A DNA stretch of 12,206 nucleotides from Thermoproteota archaeon (lineage in GTDB: Archaea > Thermoproteota > EX4484-205 > JAAOZP01). Each line of letters begins with the position of its first letter. Within the stretch, counting starts at the first letter, position 1. The position numbers and the translations under genes were made by a program. Location of the stretch: NCBI GenBank assembly GCA_049700215.1, contig JBNAVT010000042.1, positions 1 through 12,206 of the forward strand, written 5' to 3'. Under the pieces are notes generated by a model. It searched no databases. It was not told the origin of the DNA and saw only the letters and a program-made list of their open reading frames with translations. Positions 1 to 11,373 of this stretch are shown here, piece by piece.

Positions 1-2977
1 GAGCACGCTCGAATGGCTTTCCAAGATGGATAAAGAATTCCTCAGCCAGCACGCTGGCAACTTGATGGAGTACCTTGGGAGCCCACTGCTTAGGTTTAAG
101 CTTAATTCTCTACTGGGGCTTAGCCCCGAGGAAGCGCTGAGCCTCTCACAGAACGTTGGCGGAGATTTTCAACAAATGCTTCGTTTAGCTGAGTTCAGGC
201 AGGCATTCGAGCAGTTCTCAAAGCTAGGCCCGGATATTGCGGGGATACTCAGCATAAGCGGTAATGGAATAGAGGTTGGTGTTGAGGAAAGCCTTGCAGT
301 CAAGCTTTACCCCAATATCCAGAGGGGCACCGTCGTTGAATTCGAGTTCGCCAAGGGAAGCATAGTCCTCAAAGGCTTGCTGGCCTACGCTGGTGAAAGA
401 ACTCTGGGAGAAAGCGATTACATGGTTTTCGAGTTCAAGGCTGAGGAGCGCATACCCGCTGTTTTCGAGCTCCTTAAAGAAGACCTTCAAAGCGTCAAGG
501 TTGTCCCGGGGCAGCAGGCTGAGAAAACATTCGGGTTCAACGCTTTCAGCCTCTCAGACGGAAAGCTCAGCATGGATAAGGGAAGCCTGAGCATGGACGG
601 CTCAGTGAGGTTCGGCGACGGAATGGTCCTCAGGCTAGAAGACCCCTCAATCAGGCTTGTGCCAAGCGAGAACCCGTTTGAAACGGGGGAGCTGAACAAA
701 ATGCTACTCGGCGGAAGAATAAGTGGGACGAGCATACTCATCGGCGAGGACGGTGGGGTTAAAGCATTCTACGGGGGAAGCTATCTACCTGCGGTTGTGA
801 CAGCAAGCACGCTGGGGCTCCAGCTCGGGCTTTTAGCTAAGCCAAGCGGGGAAACGCTGACGATAACCCAGATGGATCTGGCTCAGAGGGGCGTAGCCGA
901 CTCAGGTCTCTTAAACATCGTCTACCCGAGCGGGGAAACGTCGACGATCATCTACACCGGCAAGGACCTTCAAACACCATTATTCTCATACTCCTCAGGT
1001 GCATTCGTAGGGATCCAAGCGGTTGAGACAAGAGTAGTGTGGACTGGCGTCGATAGGAAAGCGTTCTACACTCAAATAGCTAGCGTAAGCGAGCTCTTAG
1101 CAGGCATCCTAGGAACGGGTTTCAAGGAGGAGCTTGTTAAAACGGTTCTGCTCAGCGGCCTAACTGACTCGCAGGCACTGGATGTAGTAAACACTTTGGC
1201 GAAGAACGTTGAGTGGATTAAGACGTTAAGCGGAAAGGGCAGAGTTGAAGCAGTCAGAAAAATAACGGACTATGTTAAGAAAGGGGAGACGGCTGAAGAA
1301 GCCGCCAAGAGGGTTAAGGGGGAGAGCGAGGAGTACGTCAAGACCCTTGAGCTTGAGATAGCAGGGTTCTGCAGCTCCATCTCCGACACCATGCTCGCGA
1401 ACGAGGTTGAGGACTTTCTGAGACACGTTCTGAACACCCTTGGGCCCGATGGTGCGAAATGGCTCCTGAACCTTCTTAGGAACGTTTACTATGGAGCATT
1501 AACCCAGTCTCACGGCAATAGCGAGTTTGCGAACGATAAGCTTAGAAGCGTTGTTGAAAAGGTGTTCAAGTACCCCGAGAGCAAGTCGCACGGCTGCAGG
1601 CTGACCTCCGTTAAAACGTTGCAGCTGATGAGCCTTGAGGAGGAAACTCTAAGGAGAATACTGGAGGAGTCTCTAAGCTCAGAGGGCGAGGAGATAGTAG
1701 TCGACAGGTTTGAGAAAACAATACCCGAGTCTGGACGTGTAAGAGGCAGGGAGAAGCTTGAAAAAGGCCTCTACCTGGTTAGGGTGACTAGGAAGGAGGA
1801 TGGAAAGGTATTCGAATGGTCGAGCAGGAAGGATGAGGACAGCGATGTCTTCAACACTTGGGTTCCCGAGAGATTTTTGAAGGAGCTAGCCGGAAAAGAA
1901 GTGGAAATAGCCATTGTCAAATACGATTACTCACTACACTTCAAATCCAAAGGCTCAAACCTCTACTTCAGCCCTGGGGAGGGGTTAACTGTTGAGGGAA
2001 AGGAGATAGAGTTAGAGAGGGTTGAGCCGCAGAGCTGGAGCGAGAGGCACGGAGCATCAATGATGGTTAAGCTTGCAGAAAGGAGCACATACGGGGCTGA
2101 AATATACCTCATGTTCTTCGAGGACGGAGACTTCGGCGTTCTTTTCGGAGAATACACAGATAAAGGAGCACGTAATGTTGCATTGAGCGTTGAGGGAAAC
2201 CTGCTGATAATAGAGTACGAAGGACATAAGTCAATCGTCCCGATCGTCGTACAAGAATGGAAGGAAGGGGAGAAGTATTACCTTAACATTCCATTAGAAG
2301 AACGAGGAAGGATTAGGCTGGTTGAGGAGCTGAGGAAAATATTCGGATACTACAATGTTGAAGAACTGAGGAAAAAGATTGGAGAAGGCGAGCTGATGCT
2401 GGTAGCGTACTTCGACAACGGTAGGCGTGCTTTCTGTGGCACTGGGAGGCTTGAGATCAACGTGCCTGAAGGTGCTGAAACATTAAAATACGTTGAAATT
2501 TTGTCTCGCCCCGAATTCTCATGCTCAGAAAATCTGAGCGATGAAAAAGTTGAAGAGATAAAGAAAGCTTCCAAAGCAATGGTGGGGAAATATGGGAGGG
2601 ACGTGGCTAAAGCATACGTGCAGGATGGCCAGATCGCTGAAATTGGAAAAGCGGAATTCATAAGAAAGGAGGTTAAAATTAAAGTTGTGGATGAAAGAGT
2701 AGACCTGGTTTTCAAGACAGAGGACAATCGCCTCATAATCGTAGAGGTTAAATCGAGTAAAACTTCTGAAAAGGAACTGGCAGGTCATATTGTGGAAGGC
2801 TTAGAACAATTAGAGAGTTATAAAAACCATATTCAAGAATACGGCTTGGACTTAACTGAAGAAGGTCTGGGCATCGAGAAGGGAGAGAACATTAAGGCTT
2901 ACATAGTTGTCTACGTTTACTTCGACTTGGGGAATAAGGAGGTAAAAGTGGGATATGAACGGTTATCGAGTAGCTAA
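1..2977 (+). CDS. Large multidomain protein (5'-partial, about 990 aa visible) with C-terminal PD-(D/E)XK restriction-endonuclease-like nuclease domain; polymorphic-toxin-like
   Basis: The frame of the 26..2977 ORF is open back to the window edge (nt 2-25 = STLEWLSK, no stop). The C-terminus has RVDLVF (D893) ... IIVEVKS (E907, K909) ... GLEQLESY (Q928xxxY932), numbered from the ATG at 26. Stop TAA at 2975-2977. Confidence 0.8.
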   Translation, partial: STLEWLSKMDKEFLSQHAGNLMEYLGSPLLRFKLNSLLGLSPEEALSLSQNVGGDFQQMLRLAEFRQAFEQFSKLGPDIAGILSISGNGIEVGVEESLAVKLYPNIQRGTVVEFEFAKGSIVLKGLLAYAGERTLGESDYMVFEFKAEERIPAVFELLKEDLQSVKVVPGQQAEKTFGFNAFSLSDGKLSMDKGSLSMDGSVRFGDGMVLRLEDPSIRLVPSENPFETGELNKMLLGGRISGTSILIGEDGGVKAFYGGSYLPAVVTASTLGLQLGLLAKPSGETLTITQMDLAQRGVADSGLLNIVYPSGETSTIIYTGKDLQTPLFSYSSGAFVGIQAVETRVVWTGVDRKAFYTQIASVSELLAGILGTGFKEELVKTVLLSGLTDSQALDVVNTLAKNVEWIKTLSGKGRVEAVRKITDYVKKGETAEEAAKRVKGESEEYVKTLELEIAGFCSSISDTMLANEVEDFLRHVLNTLGPDGAKWLLNLLRNVYYGALTQSHGNSEFANDKLRSVVEKVFKYPESKSHGCRLTSVKTLQLMSLEEETLRRILEESLSSEGEEIVVDRFEKTIPESGRVRGREKLEKGLYLVRVTRKEDGKVFEWSSRKDEDSDVFNTWVPERFLKELAGKEVEIAIVKYDYSLHFKSKGSNLYFSPGEGLTVEGKEIELERVEPQSWSERHGASMMVKLAERSTYGAEIYLMFFEDGDFGVLFGEYTDKGARNVALSVEGNLLIIEYEGHKSIVPIVVQEWKEGEKYYLNIPLEERGRIRLVEELRKIFGYYNVEELRKKIGEGELMLVAYFDNGRRAFCGTGRLEINVPEGAETLKYVEILSRPEFSCSENLSDEKVEEIKKASKAMVGKYGRDVAKAYVQDGQIAEIGKAEFIRKEVKIKVVDERVDLVFKTEDNRLIIVEVKSSKTSEKELAGHIVEGLEQLESYKNHIQEYGLDLTEEGLGIEKGENIKAYIVVYVYFDLGNKEVKVGYERLSSS

Positions 2978-3630
2978 AGGATAGTCAACGGGAACTTCCA
3001 GCCCCTCTCCTTCTTCAGCCTCTCGGCTTCCTCCTTCGTTAATACGACAACCATTATAAATCCATCTTCAATCTGATAGTATTGGTAGCCTGTGTCTTCG
3101 ATGATATCGTTCAACTGCTCCAAACCCATGTCCTCGATGTAATCGTATCGTAGGGCAATCTCAATAGCATGCCTCTTGCCCTCGAAATCGAAGCTAACCT
3201 CCTGTATTGACCATTTCGTTCCTCCGGGCGTCAGCCACCTCGAGCTTATATTCGTAGGCTGGAAAACACCCCTAGATATCCTTGCAAGCCTCTTCAAGAT
3301 AACCGTCCCCATTTCACTATCTATGTTCGTTTCAACGTCTTCCACTATAACCCTCTTAGTGTCGAAGGGTATCAATTCGCGATCTATTTCGAAATCGCTC
3401 GCTTTCATCCAGCGTCCCCTGTGCTCATAAATGTCCACAATTATGTACTTTCCATGCGGATGTAAATGTCCCTCCTTTTCACATAGCCAGCCAAGTGGAT
3501 AACCGATCTCGCCCTCAAGAATCTTCTCAAGAATCTCCTCCGAAGACGAATTGGAATAGTCTTGAAAGAAACCCATCTGGCGAAGATACTCCATCGAATC
3601 CACGAACCGCTTTCTAAGCTTATGGTTCAT
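2974..3630 (-). CDS. Acidic cytoplasmic hypothetical protein (218 aa), candidate immunity protein
   Basis: The track start at 3798 lies inside tRNA-Lys, so the real start is more likely ATG 3630 (MNHKLRKRF; GTG 3633 is an alternative), about 25 nt below a TATA-like CTTAAAA. No signal peptide or TM segment. Its end overlaps the end of the large gene by 4 nt. Confidence 0.75.
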   Translation of the reverse strand: MNHKLRKRFVDSMEYLRQMGFFQDYSNSSSEEILEKILEGEIGYPLGWLCEKEGHLHPHGKYIIVDIYEHRGRWMKASDFEIDRELIPFDTKRVIVEDVETNIDSEMGTVILKRLARISRGVFQPTNISSRWLTPGGTKWSIQEVSFDFEGKRHAIEIALRYDYIEDMGLEQLNDIIEDTGYQYYQIEDGFIMVVVLTKEEAERLKKERGWKFPLTIL

Positions 3631-3654
3631 CACACTATTATTCAAACCAGGGCA

Positions 3655-3667
3655 TTTTAAGCATAAC
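3655..3667 (-). promoter_or_regulatory. TATA-like element for the 3630 gene (leaderless transcript)
   Basis: Minus strand GTTATGCTTAAAA sits about 25 nt upstream of ATG 3630. Confidence 0.4.
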
Positions 3668-3717
3668 TGTGAATTCGAAAAGAGCAAGCGCAGTACGTAT
3701 GTTATGGAAGCGCGCGC

Positions 3718-3751
3718 TAAATAAAAAGACCGAATTAGTGTGCCACTAGTT
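3718..3751 (-). terminator. Hairpin plus oligo-T tract downstream of tRNA-Lys
   Basis: Minus strand reads AACTAGTG-GCA-CACTAATT followed by CGGTCTTTTTATTT. Confidence 0.45.
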
Positions 3752-3768
3752 GGGAGATAAGAATCACG

Positions 3769-3843
3769 CGGACCCGGCGGGAATTGAACCCGCAACATCT
3801 AGGTTAAAAGCCTAGCGCTCTAACCAGGTTGAGCTACGGGTCC
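3769..3843 (-). tRNA. tRNA-Lys(UUU), intronless, CCA not encoded
   Basis: GGACCCG TA GCTC AACCTGGTTA GAGC G CTAGG CT-TTT-AA CCTAG ATGTT GCGGG TTCAATT CCCGC CGGGTCC G. All four stems pair. Confidence 0.97.
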
Positions 3844-7498: not shown

Positions 7499-8479
7499 CT
7501 ATTGCATATGAAACTGCCTTACTGAGGCTGCGGCGACCCAACAATAGAATGCTGAAGCATCAAAATATGAAAAATCCCAATAATATGTTACCTGCGTTCC
7601 CTCGGGTGCTGAAAATTGCCTACTACCTACCGTCATCCATTTGCTTAAAGTCACGCTGTAAGCATATAATGTCACGAAAATATTGGGAGGAGAAGCCCAA
7701 ACTTGGATTCCGATTGGTTTGGCAGTGCCTTGTTCACCAATTTCTTCCCATCCCTGCTGGCCGTAGCAGGGATATGTTCCTGCATTCAGATATGGCCCAC
7801 CTGTGTCACTAACATCGGCAGATGCGAGCTCTATAAGACCTAATTAATTTTTAGCTAAAGCAGTTTGTAATGGATTGAACCGTGTTCTGTTGCTGAACAT
7901 GATGATTCGGCGATTCGATAAACCGGGAATCGTGTTTTCTGGCTCTGGCAGCTCCGGTACTGGATAACTACTGGGATTATTAATTAGCGTCTTCTTGTGA
8001 ATGTGTGCTGCTTGTGGCAGCTTTTCCCTAATTACAATTCCCTCCACTACGAATATGCTGACTTTTACCACGTGTTCGCAATCCCTTAACTCAGAAATTG
8101 GTAGTCTAATCTTGTCGATGCTGATTTGAATTTGAGGGTCATTCTCACCCTTGCAGCTTTGACACTTTATGGTGGACCAGACTGGCATGTAAGCAATAGT
8201 TGGACCCAGAACCAATTTCCCTCCCTCTTCTTCAACCGTGTAATTGTACCCCATTAACTTTAAATCACTACCTAGCTCCTTTATCCTGAACTCGGTATTG
8301 ATAGTTATGTAAATTGTAGCATAGTCTCTCTCCACAGTAATCTTAAGAGAGCCTCCAGCGAATTCTTCTTGAATTGCTTCCACTACTTCACGTGGCTGTG
8401 CACCTATCCCTATGCCTACTGATAAGACTGTGAAAACGATAATGATAAGCATTATTCCCCCATATCTTATTCTTCCCAT
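7499..8479 (-). pseudogene. Secreted/surface protein gene (about 326 codons) interrupted by one in-frame TAA at 7844-7846
   Basis: N-terminal signal/TM segment (MGRIRYGGIMLIIIVFTVLSVGIGIGA), a CQSC motif and a Pro-rich linker. After the TAA the same frame stays open for 114 codons (LGLIELASADVSDTGGPY...YYWDFSYFDASAFYCWVAAASVRQFHMQ) to TAG 7499-7501. ATG 8479 has a GGGGGT RBS; ATG 8497 is an alternative start. Confidence 0.7.
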
Positions 8480-8518
8480 CTTACCCCCTACTTTCATCGA
8501 GAGATGTCTAAAGTGCAA

Positions 8519-8532
8519 TATATAAACCTTAT
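8519..8532 (-). promoter_or_regulatory. BRE/TATA promoter of the interrupted secreted-protein gene
   Basis: Minus strand ATAAGG-TTTATATA. Confidence 0.6.
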
Positions 8533-8584
8533 TTCTAGACCTGATTCAGTGTACTATATTCGGCTTGTCTAGAATTCTAGACCT
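8533..8584. repeat. Operator-like repeats: TTCTAGACCT twice (8533-8542, 8575-8584) and perfect 16-bp palindrome GTCTAGAATTCTAGAC (8567-8582)
   Basis: Read directly from the sequence; lies in the intergenic region between divergent genes. Confidence 0.7.
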
Positions 8585-8668
8585 CTAGTGTGCGGAGGTG
8601 GTATTTTAATTTCTTGCTGTTAGTATTGTCGTCTTATATTTGGCTGGATATGCGTATTTCATTATTAT

Positions 8669-8683
8669 GAAAAAATATATAAT
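8669..8683 (+). promoter_or_regulatory. BRE/TATA promoter of the peptidase operon
   Basis: GAAAAAA-TATATAAT lies about 30 nt upstream of ATG 8712. Confidence 0.6.
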
Positions 8684-8711
8684 AGGAAGTTTTAACTTTT
8701 AACTAAAGAAT

Positions 8712-9422
8712 ATGAAAAATGGGGATGTGTATTTAGGGAGGGCTAATATTAAGCAACAGGGGTGGATGATTGAGCAGGCGATTATAGTGACATTGTTGAT
8801 AGCGGTTTTATCGTTAATCTGCGTCACGTTAACCACCGCCCAAGGCGTTAGGTACTATGCAGGATACACTTTTTACGGTTACGAGGGCACTTCACCACCT
8901 TATGGAGTATCCGCCAGAATATATACCATAAATAAGAACGTGCCCACGGGCCATTTCTACGCGCAATGGCCTACTATCATACTCAGTTATGTCTACGGGT
9001 TTTGGGTTCAGGTAGGCTATACTAAAGGTTGGGACACCAACTATCAGCTGACATGGTACGCGGAGAAGAATGACTGGAACGGTTGGGAAATTCACTGGAT
9101 TGGCACCCCGAGCGTTGGGGCCACGTATAATTATTGGATAGAGAGATATGAGAATAGCGACGTCTGGGTCGGCGGTGTCTCTGGCTATTGGATCTGGGAC
9201 TTCGGGACACTTAATCCCAACACGGCGGTGGATTACCAAGCATTCAGCGAAACCACAACCACTGGAATAAATATCGATGGAACGCGCTTCAGCAACCTAT
9301 GCATCCTTAGCTACAATGGGATCGACTGGATCCCTTGGTTTAGGCATGTGCCCAAGCATGATCCTCCTTACTGGCTTACACAAGTCTCCGATTGCGAGTT
9401 TTACGCTTGGGGTGGTGGCTGA
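8712..9422 (+). CDS. Secreted beta-sandwich protein, putative glutamic peptidase (neprosin/G3-like fold with G1-type Q/E dyad)
   Basis: Signal peptide (IIVTLLIAVLSLICVTLTTAQG). Motifs YGVSARI, WVQVGY (Q100), TWYAE, QAFSET (E180), TRFSNL and C-terminal FYAWGGG. Trp/Tyr/Gly-rich. Alternative start ATG 8766. Confidence 0.65.
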   Translation: MKNGDVYLGRANIKQQGWMIEQAIIVTLLIAVLSLICVTLTTAQGVRYYAGYTFYGYEGTSPPYGVSARIYTINKNVPTGHFYAQWPTIILSYVYGFWVQVGYTKGWDTNYQLTWYAEKNDWNGWEIHWIGTPSVGATYNYWIERYENSDVWVGGVSGYWIWDFGTLNPNTAVDYQAFSETTTTGINIDGTRFSNLCILSYNGIDWIPWFRHVPKHDPPYWLTQVSDCEFYAWGGG

Positions 9423-10042
9423 TGACTCGAGTTGGGAATATGCTCCTTATAGTGCTTTTGGCAGTCATGGCTATGGGTGTAATCGTAGGGAACTACATTG
9501 TGCCCAAGCAATCCGCGAACACGGCTCCAGATTCTACTGCATATGAAGCTTCCCCAAGAGGCCCCGCACCCTTCCCCGGTGAGATTGTTCCCCTGGATAC
9601 TGTAGTCAGCCAGCTGGCCAAGAAGGGGTTTACGCTTCACCTGCCCACGAAGACGATGAGGGGAATGAAGCTCACAGCCGTGTGGGCTAAGGTCCTCGAC
9701 GGGCAGGTTAGCTTCCCCATAATAGTGCTCTACAGTGACACTGGAGACAAAGATATTTCAACGGCGGAAATCGCTATAGAAATAGCACCCATGCCTGAAA
9801 TCCCCTTCCGTGTAGTCAACAGCTCAACCGACAGATTCGATAGGGTAGGCGGGTGGATGGCATTCATCTCCAGCAGAGCACCAACGGGTTACAGAGAATA
9901 CTATCTGAAGTATGGCACGGAGTACGCATATCTTGTAGATATAAAGATCGGTCCCTTGAACTATCTCTTTAGGTTCGCACCCGTCTTAACAGAGGAGGAA
10001 ATTATGGAAATCTGTACAAGCATGAAGCCTGCAACTCCATAG
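9422..10042 (+). CDS. Membrane-anchored extracytoplasmic protein (206 aa), DUF4367/RseB-C-like by motif
   Basis: ATG 9422 overlaps the upstream stop (TGATG), with GGTGGTGG RBS at 9411-9418. It has an N-terminal TM helix, a P/S/T linker, GFTLHLPT...GMKL, and a C-terminal amphipathic helix LTEEEIMEICTSMK. Confidence 0.7.
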   Translation: MTRVGNMLLIVLLAVMAMGVIVGNYIVPKQSANTAPDSTAYEASPRGPAPFPGEIVPLDTVVSQLAKKGFTLHLPTKTMRGMKLTAVWAKVLDGQVSFPIIVLYSDTGDKDISTAEIAIEIAPMPEIPFRVVNSSTDRFDRVGGWMAFISSRAPTGYREYYLKYGTEYAYLVDIKIGPLNYLFRFAPVLTEEEIMEICTSMKPATP

Positions 10043-10086
10043 AAATAACTGGAATACGCTTGATTAAGACTCATCCCTGTATGCTG

Positions 10087-11373
10087 CTATTTTAGTATGC
10101 CTACTACTCCTCCAAAGCCCTTGTAGAGCATCACTCCCTCCTCGGTGGCTGTTGATATTAGTTCCAGCTGGATGTTTTTCTGAGAGGCTGTTTCAATGAA
10201 GCGGTCTAAGAGGCTCTCCTTCTCAGCAACATAAAGGCTTGTCGCGCCGCATTTTGGGCATGGTGTCGAGGATATTTTAGCTGGGAGCGTAATCAGCTCT
10301 TGAAACGGGTGTTGCTCAACAGCATCGTAGCCGCATCTGCCGCACTTAATCTTAACCATGAATATGTCGAGAGCCTCTGAGAAAAGTATGAGCCTAACCT
10401 TTCCGCTTTGAACCGCGTTCTCAACCTCTTTAAGCCCGTAGACAACCTTGTCTGGCTCGGTGCTCACAAGCTTAAGGAAGCTGCCTACCAGGTTCCTCTC
10501 CTTTATCAAGTCAAGCTCCTGAAGCTTTTCAGACGCTTTTCCCAGTATCTCCTTTATGCCCTGGTGACCAGTGTATGAAGTGTCCACCACTGTCAGTATC
10601 TTTTTCCTAAGCTCGTAATGAATGAAATCCTTTTCGAGGAACATTTCCTTCGTCGGCCCAGGCCCACCAACTATCAACCCTTTAACATCAGTGTTCTGAA
10701 GATAGATCTCGTTCAGACGCTCAGCGACACGCCTGTAGAAATCGTTTAGCTCCATCTCCCTAAGCCTTTCAAACCTTCTAGCCGACTGGCCTCCCTTGCT
10801 CGTCTTACCAGGGACGCCGGAGGTCAACTCGTCTTTCACGTCAATATTCCTACCCGTTGCGAGGGCAATCGTCGCCTCAGAATTATCAATGGACAGGATT
10901 AGATACTTATCCTTCTTCTCAAGCATCTCTTTAAGAGGCTCAACGTAAAACTTGTCGTCGCAGCCATAGTATGAGAGAGTTATTTTCTCAGGAGGCTCTA
11001 TCACGTGGATCTCAATGTTCTCCGAACCAGGAGCTTCTCCCGGGATGGCTCCGCAGAATATGACGAGCCCGTTTTCAGGAGCCTCGTCGTAGAGCTTAAG
11101 CCTCTGCTGAACCCTTACTATAGCGTCCTGAACATTCTTCCTCGTTGTTCTAGACTTAATGTTAGACGCCTTCCCATACTCCTCCCTGAGGTTCGTCATC
11201 ACCTCGCTTATCCGTCTCCCCGGGGGTATGTAGAGGCTAATCAGCTCCGTTCCACGACCCCTTTTTTCAGAGAGCTCTCTAAGAGTCCTCCTCGAAATAT
11301 ACTCCTTCACCGAGGTTGCAAGTGTTTTTCCGCTCAAAACAGGGTTCTCCAGGGAGACCTCGCTAAACCCCAT
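10087..11373 (-). CDS. prf1: Peptide chain release factor aRF1
   Basis: Motifs GRGTELISLYIPP, ASNIKS, YGCD, KGGQSARRF and a C-domain zinc-ribbon insert (CGRCG...CPKCG). The true start may be TTG 11337. Confidence 0.98.
   Translation of the reverse strand: MGFSEVSLENPVLSGKTLATSVKEYISRRTLRELSEKRGRGTELISLYIPPGRRISEVMTNLREEYGKASNIKSRTTRKNVQDAIVRVQQRLKLYDEAPENGLVIFCGAIPGEAPGSENIEIHVIEPPEKITLSYYGCDDKFYVEPLKEMLEKKDKYLILSIDNSEATIALATGRNIDVKDELTSGVPGKTSKGGQSARRFERLREMELNDFYRRVAERLNEIYLQNTDVKGLIVGGPGPTKEMFLEKDFIHYELRKKILTVVDTSYTGHQGIKEILGKASEKLQELDLIKERNLVGSFLKLVSTEPDKVVYGLKEVENAVQSGKVRLILFSEALDIFMVKIKCGRCGYDAVEQHPFQELITLPAKISSTPCPKCGATSLYVAEKESLLDRFIETASQKNIQLELISTATEEGVMLYKGFGGVVGILK

Follow-up and report, generated by a model that had tools for sequence, protein, structure and literature searches.

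An exchangeable nuclease cassette at the end of a giant Brockarchaeota membrane protein: a candidate polymorphic toxin with an immunity-like partner

The window analysed here, a stretch of 12,206 nt (positions 1 to 12,206 of contig JBNAVT010000042.1, Thermoproteota archaeon assembly GCA_049700215.1), opens with a long open reading frame (ORF; 2..2977, plus strand) that an initial annotation had read as the end of a giant archaeal protein carrying a C-terminal PD-(D/E)XK nuclease, and as a candidate polymorphic toxin. Here, we show that this frame is the last 40% (991 codons) of a ~2,450-amino-acid (aa) membrane protein, that its final ~435 aa form a cassette which has been exchanged between otherwise near-identical loci, and that each such cassette pairs with one of two unrelated cytoplasmic partner proteins. 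We give roughly even weight to the reading that the locus encodes a polymorphic nuclease toxin specific to Brockarchaeota, together with an immunity-like partner, for which we infer toxicity, binding and delivery alike.

The exchange is seen most directly at a syntenic locus of a sister species, L036. Seven flanking genes there are 92–100% identical to those of the window (TFE 100%, aRF1 96.5%, PyrH 96.5%, NAC 95.7%, MBF1-like 94.4%, Trm56 93.7%, HD 92.1%), and the body of the giant protein is 73% identical, whereas the cassette (aa 556–991) gives no match at E ≤ 1e-5 and the partner is only 41% identical. The position of the change is sharply defined. An alignment of ten C-termini is well conserved through the motif '...VVEKxFKYPES..GC.LAS' and then breaks into at least three discrete types, showing that very divergent cassettes are attached at one fixed junction. 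The cassette consists of small beta domains followed by the nuclease. Metagenomic data hint at exchange within the population as well: in a second hot-spring sample a contig follows the window to position 1583, near the junction, and then continues with different sequence, while in the main sample positions 1–2030 split into many variant unitigs and positions 2029–3617 form one clean contig.

Cassette ends outnumber the other parts of the giant gene. The source genome holds two N-terminal and two middle parts of the giant gene but at least six cassette ends (contigs C42, C8, C9, C85, C57 and C15), with an additional cassette scrap of 39–58 aa on C19. On C9 the cassette is a stand-alone ORF of 556 aa, internal to its contig, whose own ATG falls within conserved sequence ahead of the junction. 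RNA polymerase genes lie upstream of this ORF, separated from it by a gene for a ribosomal protein (S12 as judged from reading the sequence, with no family search). A stand-alone 562-aa cassette ORF at L062 resembles the C9 copy, and stand-alone cassettes retain the helical bundle that precedes the junction. Among 28 loci of the first partner family, fam6, from named metagenome-assembled genomes (MAGs), an intact convergent ORF of ≥500 aa is present at 14, a decayed cassette remnant takes its place at eight, and six have neither, one of these six having only 770 nt of room; a cassette, intact or decayed, thus adjoins the partner at 22 of the 28.

The same cassette is found on at least three other carrier types. 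Short carriers of 727–855 aa (L052, L053, L055, L066 and L068) are joined to it at the giant's own junction; their N-terminal ~380–410 aa are extremely rich in E, K and R and start 'MGQFSAELNYERRL...'. Three of these carriers lie at L053:9705-12179(-), L055:5868-8432(-) and L066:9023-11203(-). At L056, the cassette is attached at the giant's junction to a 1,717-aa carrier with a signal peptide and a transmembrane segment. The source genome also encodes a second family of large proteins (C1:89511-94643, 1,711 aa; C15:13486-18597, 1,704 aa; C10:51786-56648, 1,621 aa). These have a signal peptide, an ectodomain with 9–16 N-x-S/T sequons against 3.6–3.7 expected, transmembrane segments near aa 750–980 and a C-terminal PD...E-x-K domain, and are followed by genes of the second partner family, fam7.

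What the cassette ends in is indicated by structural modelling. We modelled P0001, the 991-aa translation of the window frame whose residue numbers we use throughout, over residues 556–991 (residues 1–436 of the model). The AlphaFold2 (AF2) model, built on a 38-row alignment, has a mean predicted local distance difference test score (pLDDT) of 93.8 and a predicted TM-score of 0.84. In a VIA-align wide search against 48,161 chains, model residues ~283–436 were the part aligned in 48 of the 50 rows listed, to nucleases or resolvases that, from their titles, we take to have the PD-(D/E)XK fold. They include Exo5 (7lw7, Z 7.2, root-mean-square deviation (rmsd) 2.8 over 95 aligned residues), a phage exonuclease (3k93, Z 7.2), XisH (2okf, Z 7.1), AF1548 (Z 7.0), NucS (2vld, Z 6.9), the HsdR N-terminus (Z 6.9), Hjc (1gef, Z 6.8) and CdiA-CT (4g6u, Z 5.8, rmsd 3.8, 117 aligned), as well as the defence nucleases Shedu SduA (8ps4, Z 6.0), Hachiman HamA (8vxy, Z 5.7) and Card1 (6wxw, Z 5.2). 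The remaining two rows place a small beta domain (model residues 9–89) on PHS018 (2glw, Z 7.1, rmsd 3.5, 78 aligned) and PG0164. Foldseek returned NucS (2vld_A, probability 0.98), EndoMS (5gke, 0.84) and SfsA (4dav, 0.77), the low global TM-score of the NucS match reflecting the several domains of the query.

Sequence profiles alone are less decisive. P0001 has no Pfam match above cut-offs; the best is the SfsA RE domain at residues 867–925 (E = 3e-4, 21.0 bits against a cut-off of 22.8), followed by HSDR_N_2 (E = 0.2, 12.2 bits against 25) and, in NCBIfam, a sub-threshold match to TIGR00230 (E = 0.086). Paralogous cassettes approach HSDR_N (19.4 against 25.1) and PDDEXK_9 (16.1 against 25.5), so that none of the curated nuclease families SfsA, HSDR_N or PDDEXK_9 reaches its cut-off. 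Tox-REase models, which belong to Pfam-A, are absent from the P0001 matches at E ≤ 1, and a search of PDB sequences with the cassette profile gave a best E of 0.13, with Shedu SduA at E = 0.67. Since no structural match exceeds Z 8, the nuclease assignment rests on the uniformity of the structure list, on the motif, and on weak matches to four nuclease Pfam families by different cassettes. As modelled, the last ~150 aa are a PD-(D/E)XK (restriction-endonuclease) fold, in agreement with the initial annotation, whose D893, E907, K909, Q928 and Y932 are all present (D901, E915, K917, Q936 and Y940 of P0001). All 27 cassette ends that we aligned share this fold, and 24 of them keep (D/E)xK. The exceptions, ExE in L053 and L059 and SxK in L056, sit in otherwise intact cassettes whose nucleases may have been inactivated. 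The first part of the cassette (aa 556–835) is also modelled at pLDDT >90, and modules weakly similar to it end other large proteins of the same genome.

The window cassette faces a convergent gene of the fam6 family, with the two stop codons overlapping (Table 1). This gene starts at the ATG at 3630 and encodes 218 aa; an alternative 274-aa frame (2974..3798) runs over the tRNA-Lys(TTT) gene, and its first 56 codons are therefore not real. In the fam6 alignment (A2), 43 columns are invariant and the proteins have the start MNxxLRKRF in common. Homologues adjoin cassette 3' ends on C8, C9, C85 and C10 of the same genome and in other genomes. Other cassettes are followed by a co-directional gene of ~200–250 aa, fam7. 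Neither family has a transmembrane segment, signal peptide or Pfam match, and a common superfamily for the two was rejected (hhalign probability 0.08%). A protein search with fam6 returned 92 clusters, all named ones being hypothetical proteins of Brockarchaeota or other archaeal MAGs; several MAGs hold three to six copies by locus tags, and partner genes or fragments of them occur at 26 places in the 2.09-Mb source genome. ESM Atlas places unnamed bacterial hypothetical proteins nearest to the fam6 partner. DUF6630 was considered and set aside, with an ESM Atlas score of only 0.78 and a Pfam hit in just one of eight partner proteins (E = 0.16); no mention of DUF6630 was found in the literature covered. 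Three double-length proteins of 443–465 aa (P0076–P0078) are presumably tandem fam6 fusions.

Partner and nuclease diverge together, and the initial annotation had passed over the partner gene. Across 19 intact pairs (14 fam6 loci from named MAGs and five of the source genome), identities between partners correlate with those between nucleases (Mantel r = 0.75, with 0 of 2,000 permutations reaching this r). Over these pairs the fam6 partners average 43% identity, against 26% for the nucleases and 27% for the middle modules. Between the two paralogues of the source genome, identity is lower in the nuclease (51%) and the partner (56%) than in the body (77%) or the middle module (78%). A recombinant, G031a, combines a middle module of the window type with a nuclease of another type and a fam7 partner. 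Complex prediction between the nuclease (model residues 283–436) and the fam6 partner scored 0.00 in two runs made without controls, a result that is evidence neither way. Read depth rises over positions 3572–3668, which cover the first codons of the partner and its leader (summed depth 38 against 14 nearby), and short contigs in both hot-spring runs cover only this ~97-nt stretch, with flanks that differ on both sides. The stretch probably reflects a conserved 5' end common to many partner paralogues.

The cassette sits on a much larger protein than the window contains. The window is the start of contig C42 in a genome of 85 contigs (94.6% complete), and the open left edge, recognized as such in the initial annotation, is therefore an assembly break and not a gene start; counted from the ATG at position 26, the window frame has 983 codons. 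Exact overlaps between contig ends (C69–C81, 55 nt; C81–C80, 33 nt; C80–C42, 30 nt) carry the gene leftwards. C81 contributes an N-terminal piece of 552 aa, preceded by the end of another gene. One uninterrupted frame spans the whole of C80 (2,831 nt, 943 aa) and another the whole of C78 (3,325 nt, 1,108 aa), and the C-terminal residues of both agree with the first residues of the window frame. A second, paralogous chain in the same genome (C64–C84 ... C78 ... C8) is 75–80% identical. Complete orthologous ORFs of 2,448, 2,394, 2,357 and 2,364 aa in other genomes of the genus confirm the architecture despite the inferred contig joins, and bear out the giant size first proposed.

In the numbering of the L031 orthologue, the protein begins with ~7 hydrophobic helices (aa 1–270), and the basic loops between them suggest an N-terminus inside the cell. 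There follows a soluble ectodomain of ~1,000 aa, the most conserved region (mean pairwise identity 0.6–0.8), which with 7–9 sequons is richer in these than the C-terminal half. At aa ~1283–1400 lies a Gly/Ala-rich segment with weak matches to Gly-zipper_Omp (E = 0.02–0.13) and marginal hydrophobicity (0–3 stretches above the hydropathy threshold in four orthologues). The C-terminal half, ~1,050 aa, runs from a moderately variable stretch through a conserved region (aa ~1750–1990; P0001 ~295–535) to the variable end. Mean pairwise identity among the four complete proteins is 0.5–0.8 at aa 286–1240 and 0.48–0.63 at aa 1753–1987, and is 0.14–0.29 beyond aa 1988. Immediately upstream of the giant gene is a conserved gene for a protein of ~510–550 aa. 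This protein, presumably secreted or anchored, has a hydrophobic segment at its N-terminus and a beta-rich body with many sequons. An extra copy of this upstream gene (C48:~8044-10206 and L035:6282-9319) has no giant gene after it; a small gene and a fam7 partner gene come next.

Most of this protein resembles nothing classified. The four complete orthologues have no Pfam family at E ≤ 0.1 besides chance-level rows, and for the ectodomain ESM Atlas offers nothing beyond leads to Big_1 and CBM_4_9 that score below 0.8. A PrsW-like protease in the seven-helix region was rejected: there is no Pfam match and no conserved acidic (EExxK) or His pattern, the pattern of PrsW peptidases. The body in the window (P0001 1–560) is modelled at pLDDT 87.5, with helices at aa 1–73, beta-rich domains at aa 80–341 and a helical bundle at aa 352–559. 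No fold could be named from searches with this model (VIA-align wide best Z 7.7, to designed helical proteins; Foldseek best TM-score 0.11), in which the helical part filled the list and the beta part (aa 80–341) was barely covered.

The giant protein is confined almost only to one Brockarchaeota genus among the genomes searched. P0001 has matches in 16 of 401 genomes of the phylum with its own counted (15 of 400 without it); apart from its own genome these are 14 of 16 genomes of the same genus and one of six of a second family, with none in other families. Among 1.84 billion representative proteins, 74 match P0001 at E ≤ 0.001. Within the genus, the body (aa 1–547 of P0001) is 63–75% identical between orthologues.

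These features suggest how the locus might work as a polymorphic toxin. The nuclease would be a toxin that cuts nucleic acid, and the partner would bind and block it in the manner of an immunity protein. Cassette–partner pairs would be swapped by recombination within the conserved helical stretch that precedes the junction, leaving strains different in what they attack and in what they withstand. Presentation of the cassette, or its delivery to nearby cells, would fall to the membrane and ectodomain part together with the upstream secreted protein. A bolder form of this proposal, which we regard as doubtful, is that the ~2,450-aa carrier with its seven transmembrane helices is a contact-dependent weapon or kin-recognition system of the Brockarchaeota's own, unrelated in sequence to bacterial ones, whose cassette is stored in the cytoplasm, held by its private inhibitor and passed across its own and the neighbour's membrane through the glycine-zipper segment. 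If true, it would give archaea a new route of protein export and delivery, along with a novel pre-toxin module and a pair of novel immunity families.

The genomic behaviour of the locus argues for the toxin reading. A fixed junction, a syntenic swap, stand-alone and decayed cassettes, two partner families, many copies and several carriers together match what passages of a survey of polymorphic toxin–immunity systems describe (PMC3482391). A variable C-terminal domain sits on a conserved body, with variants that differ in sequence type and not in fold, and stand-alone cassettes are available for recombination (C9, L062, and eight decayed remnants). The initial annotation had asked whether homologues carry different C-termini. 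They do, with an abrupt change in the last ~435 aa, but the fold is the same in every variant and the diversity of toxin types seen elsewhere is missing. The leftward extension that it proposed, to look for membrane and delivery domains, turned up ~7 transmembrane helices and an ectodomain and no known delivery domain. The proposal of a polymorphic toxin as a whole has gained an exchangeable nuclease end, a natural swap, stand-alone and decayed cassettes and a linked partner, and is weakened by the single fold, the missing delivery and processing domains, a cytoplasm-like C-terminal half and carriers that lack a transmembrane segment.

Several observations weigh against the toxin reading. One nuclease fold is common to all 27 cassettes, where classic polymorphic toxins swap unrelated toxin folds. 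No HINT, RHS or trafficking Pfam family was detected in P0001, C78 or C80 at E ≤ 1 or in the four complete orthologues at E ≤ 0.1, extending what the initial annotation had remarked of the window, and no known export-route signal, releasing peptidase or repeat scaffold was found in the giant protein, which has only its N-terminal polytopic anchor. The short carriers have no transmembrane segment, signal peptide or Pfam match. The charge content of the cassettes (0.30–0.35, against 0.26–0.34 for housekeeping proteins) is cytoplasm-like, and the C-terminal halves of the giants contain 0–1 sequons where 2.7–4.2 are expected, against 7–16 in ectodomains; judged by this composition, the C-terminal half is probably inside the producer. 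As genome baselines, the ratio of sequons observed to those expected is 0.84 in cytoplasmic-like ORFs and 1.74 in secreted-like ones, and 19 cassettes alone hold 13 sequons against 21.1 expected. As a test of topology or export, sequon depletion was discarded, since 18 of 45 long cytoplasmic-like proteins also have 0–1. The partner raises further objections: linkage alone would also yield a correlation with the nuclease; fam6 is more conserved than the nuclease, the opposite of many toxin–immunity pairs; its convergent orientation is unusual for an immunity gene; and the link between partner family and nuclease type comes from a single recombinant, G031a. Lastly, with two paralogues and overlaps of just 30–55 nt, contig pieces may be cross-assigned between the copies.

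The foremost alternative is that the locus forms a defence or abortive-infection system anchored in the membrane, to which we assign a clearly smaller yet appreciable likelihood. The ectodomain and the upstream secreted protein would sense a surface event such as virus attachment or envelope damage, and the cytoplasmic nuclease, restrained by the partner until triggered, would then act in the producer on incoming or own DNA. Such a system would explain the topology, with a cytoplasm-like, sequon-poor C-terminal half and cassette beneath a sequon-rich ectodomain, and also the same cassette on carriers that lack transmembrane segments. Shedu SduA, Hachiman HamA and Card1 match the nuclease at similar Z, a weak PADLOC match (CARF4--CARF_PDDEXK, E = 0.011, 13 bits) falls on the nuclease domain, and fast divergence with many paralogues is typical of defence genes too. 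What it leaves unexplained is the orphan cassettes: stand-alone copies that keep a conserved upstream stretch, and decayed copies beside intact partners, are a signature of toxin–immunity exchange, and we know of none among sensor–effector defence genes. No PADLOC-DB v2 family was matched at E ≤ 0.01, and nothing at all by a complete orthologue or by the partner and upstream proteins; conservation is highest in the surface part, which one would not expect of a virus sensor; and the window neighbours are housekeeping genes, not a defence island.

Those neighbours are not repair or restriction genes either, the context that the initial annotation had named as counting against a toxin. A housekeeping-type machine that processes DNA at the membrane, for uptake, exchange between cells or scavenging of extracellular DNA, with a NucS/SfsA-like nuclease and the partner as its cofactor, is improbable in our view. 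Repair and processing nucleases are indeed the closest two-domain structure matches (NucS 2vld, EndoMS 5gke, SfsA 4dav), SfsA is the best Pfam match, and a membrane anchor with an ectodomain is present. Yet a housekeeping nuclease would not be expected to be replaced by a type without a match at E ≤ 1e-5 between sister species whose flanking genes are 92–100% identical (L036), nor to occur as at least six cassette copies plus decayed remnants in a 2-Mb genome, nor to be found in just 15 of the 400 other genomes searched in the phylum. More improbable still is a surface or envelope protein whose terminal domain serves for binding or as a scaffold, without catalysis, and to which the partner gene is a mere neighbour. 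Three of 27 cassettes without the canonical motif, and the lack of any family-level hidden Markov model match above cut-off, would fit it. Retention of (D/E)xK in the other 24 at a mean identity of only 26% speaks against it, as do the partner adjoining the cassette at 22 of 28 loci and the overlapping stop codons in the window.

Among known systems, the closest analogue of the putative toxin locus appears to be CdiA-CT/CdiI, of which the E. coli EC869 PD-(D/E)XK DNase (4g6u) is the example at hand. Both have a very large conserved carrier with a sharply bounded, exchangeable C-terminal nuclease, a small cytoplasmic partner encoded alongside and orphan cassettes in which some of the conserved region is retained. 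In contrast to CdiA, the giant has no Pfam-detected TPS domain, FHA repeats or VENN motif, is anchored by ~7 transmembrane helices, faces a convergent fam6 partner instead of a downstream gene on the same strand, and belongs to a set of cassettes that all share one fold. To our knowledge, the host archaeon has no outer membrane.

Polymorphic toxin systems have been studied extensively in bacteria, and Tox-REase toxins offer a second comparison. The table of polymorphic toxins in Zhang et al. 2012 (PMC3482391) lists for Tox-REase-6 the motif 'E, D, ExK, Q, Y', a pattern of the same kind as D901, E915-x-K917, Q936 and Y940 here, and passages of that survey describe C-terminal toxins of the REase fold that recombine with stand-alone cassettes, as well as bacterial Tox-REase forms fused to multi-transmembrane PrsW, whose polytopic membrane N-terminus recalls that of the giant. 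Unlike those forms, the giant has no Tox-REase or PrsW model among its Pfam matches (E ≤ 1 for P0001, E ≤ 0.1 for the four complete orthologues), and its partner families match no Pfam family. The same passages have most immunity superfamilies absent from archaea and classical polymorphic toxin systems rare there (PMC3482391), and archaeal systems are described, in parts of a study of Thermococcales, as predicted but experimentally uncharacterised (PMC8416519). The VARTIG module treated in that study, whose function is given as unknown and which its authors compare with polymorphic toxin systems, is likewise an archaeal locus restricted to one lineage, and recombination makes the C-terminal part of its large surface protein hypervariable (PMC8416519). 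Its variable part is an Ig domain followed by small membrane proteins, however, where the present locus has a nuclease cassette and a cytoplasmic partner, and we saw no sequence relation to the giant.

NucS/EndoMS, SfsA and Hjc have the same fold and catalytic motif as the last ~150 aa, and NucS and SfsA also have a beta domain ahead of the nuclease. Those are small stand-alone cytoplasmic enzymes of repair or resolution conserved across archaea, whereas the hypervariable domain described here forms the end of a 2,450-aa membrane protein and comes with a partner of its own. We found no earlier description of the giant or cassette family in the literature covered; the survey of Makarova et al. 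in mBio (2019), reportedly the main one of archaeal polymorphic toxins, lay outside that coverage and may list related families.

Table 1. Coordinates of the giant gene, its partner and the boundary of the locus in the window
Feature	Position	Strand	Basis or remark
Conserved post-membrane body, P0001 aa 1–555	2..1666	+	AF2 model, orthologue identity
Exchangeable cassette, first part, P0001 aa 556–835: small beta domains and short helical linker	1667..2506	+	
C-terminal PD-(D/E)XK nuclease domain (predicted), P0001 aa 836–991	2507..2974	+	Motif, model
Catalytic candidate D901	2702-2704	+	
Catalytic candidate E915	2744-2746	+	
Catalytic candidate K917	2750-2752	+	
Stop codon TAA of the giant gene	2975-2977	+	
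fam6 partner gene, 218 aa, convergent with the giant gene	2974..3630	-	TAG stop 2974-2976
tRNA-Lys(TTT), right boundary of the locus	3768..3843	-	ARAGORN; Rfam RF00005, 74.3 bits

Elsewhere in the window and the genome, we made some observations that lie apart from the cassette. The tRNA-Lys(TTT) gene sits between the partner gene and an HD-domain gene. Three ORFs have no Pfam match (7844-8518, minus strand; 8712-9422 and 9392-10042, plus strand). They lie in the lowest-GC part of the window (0.405–0.44), and reading their sequences suggests a hydrophobic N-terminal segment in each; with only 13% charged residues, the product of 8712-9422 looks secreted. On contig C11 of the same genome (C11:2623-9915, L050), an anaerobic ribonucleotide reductase (NrdD) frame of 2,431 aa contains intein splicing and LAGLIDADG domains.

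The layout of the locus resembles that of bacterial toxin–immunity weapons, but its parts match no known family. No known export module is present, so delivery between cells, if real, would need a new mechanism; if the nuclease instead acts inside the producer, the locus would represent a new kind of membrane-coupled defence nuclease. Some 2,000 confidently folded yet unclassifiable residues, two partner families and an upstream secreted protein would together make up one functional unit in an uncultured hot-spring lineage. With a confident nuclease model, named catalytic residues, a defined partner, a natural cassette swap and about two dozen partner copies, the locus provides a concrete archaeal candidate for a polymorphic toxin system.

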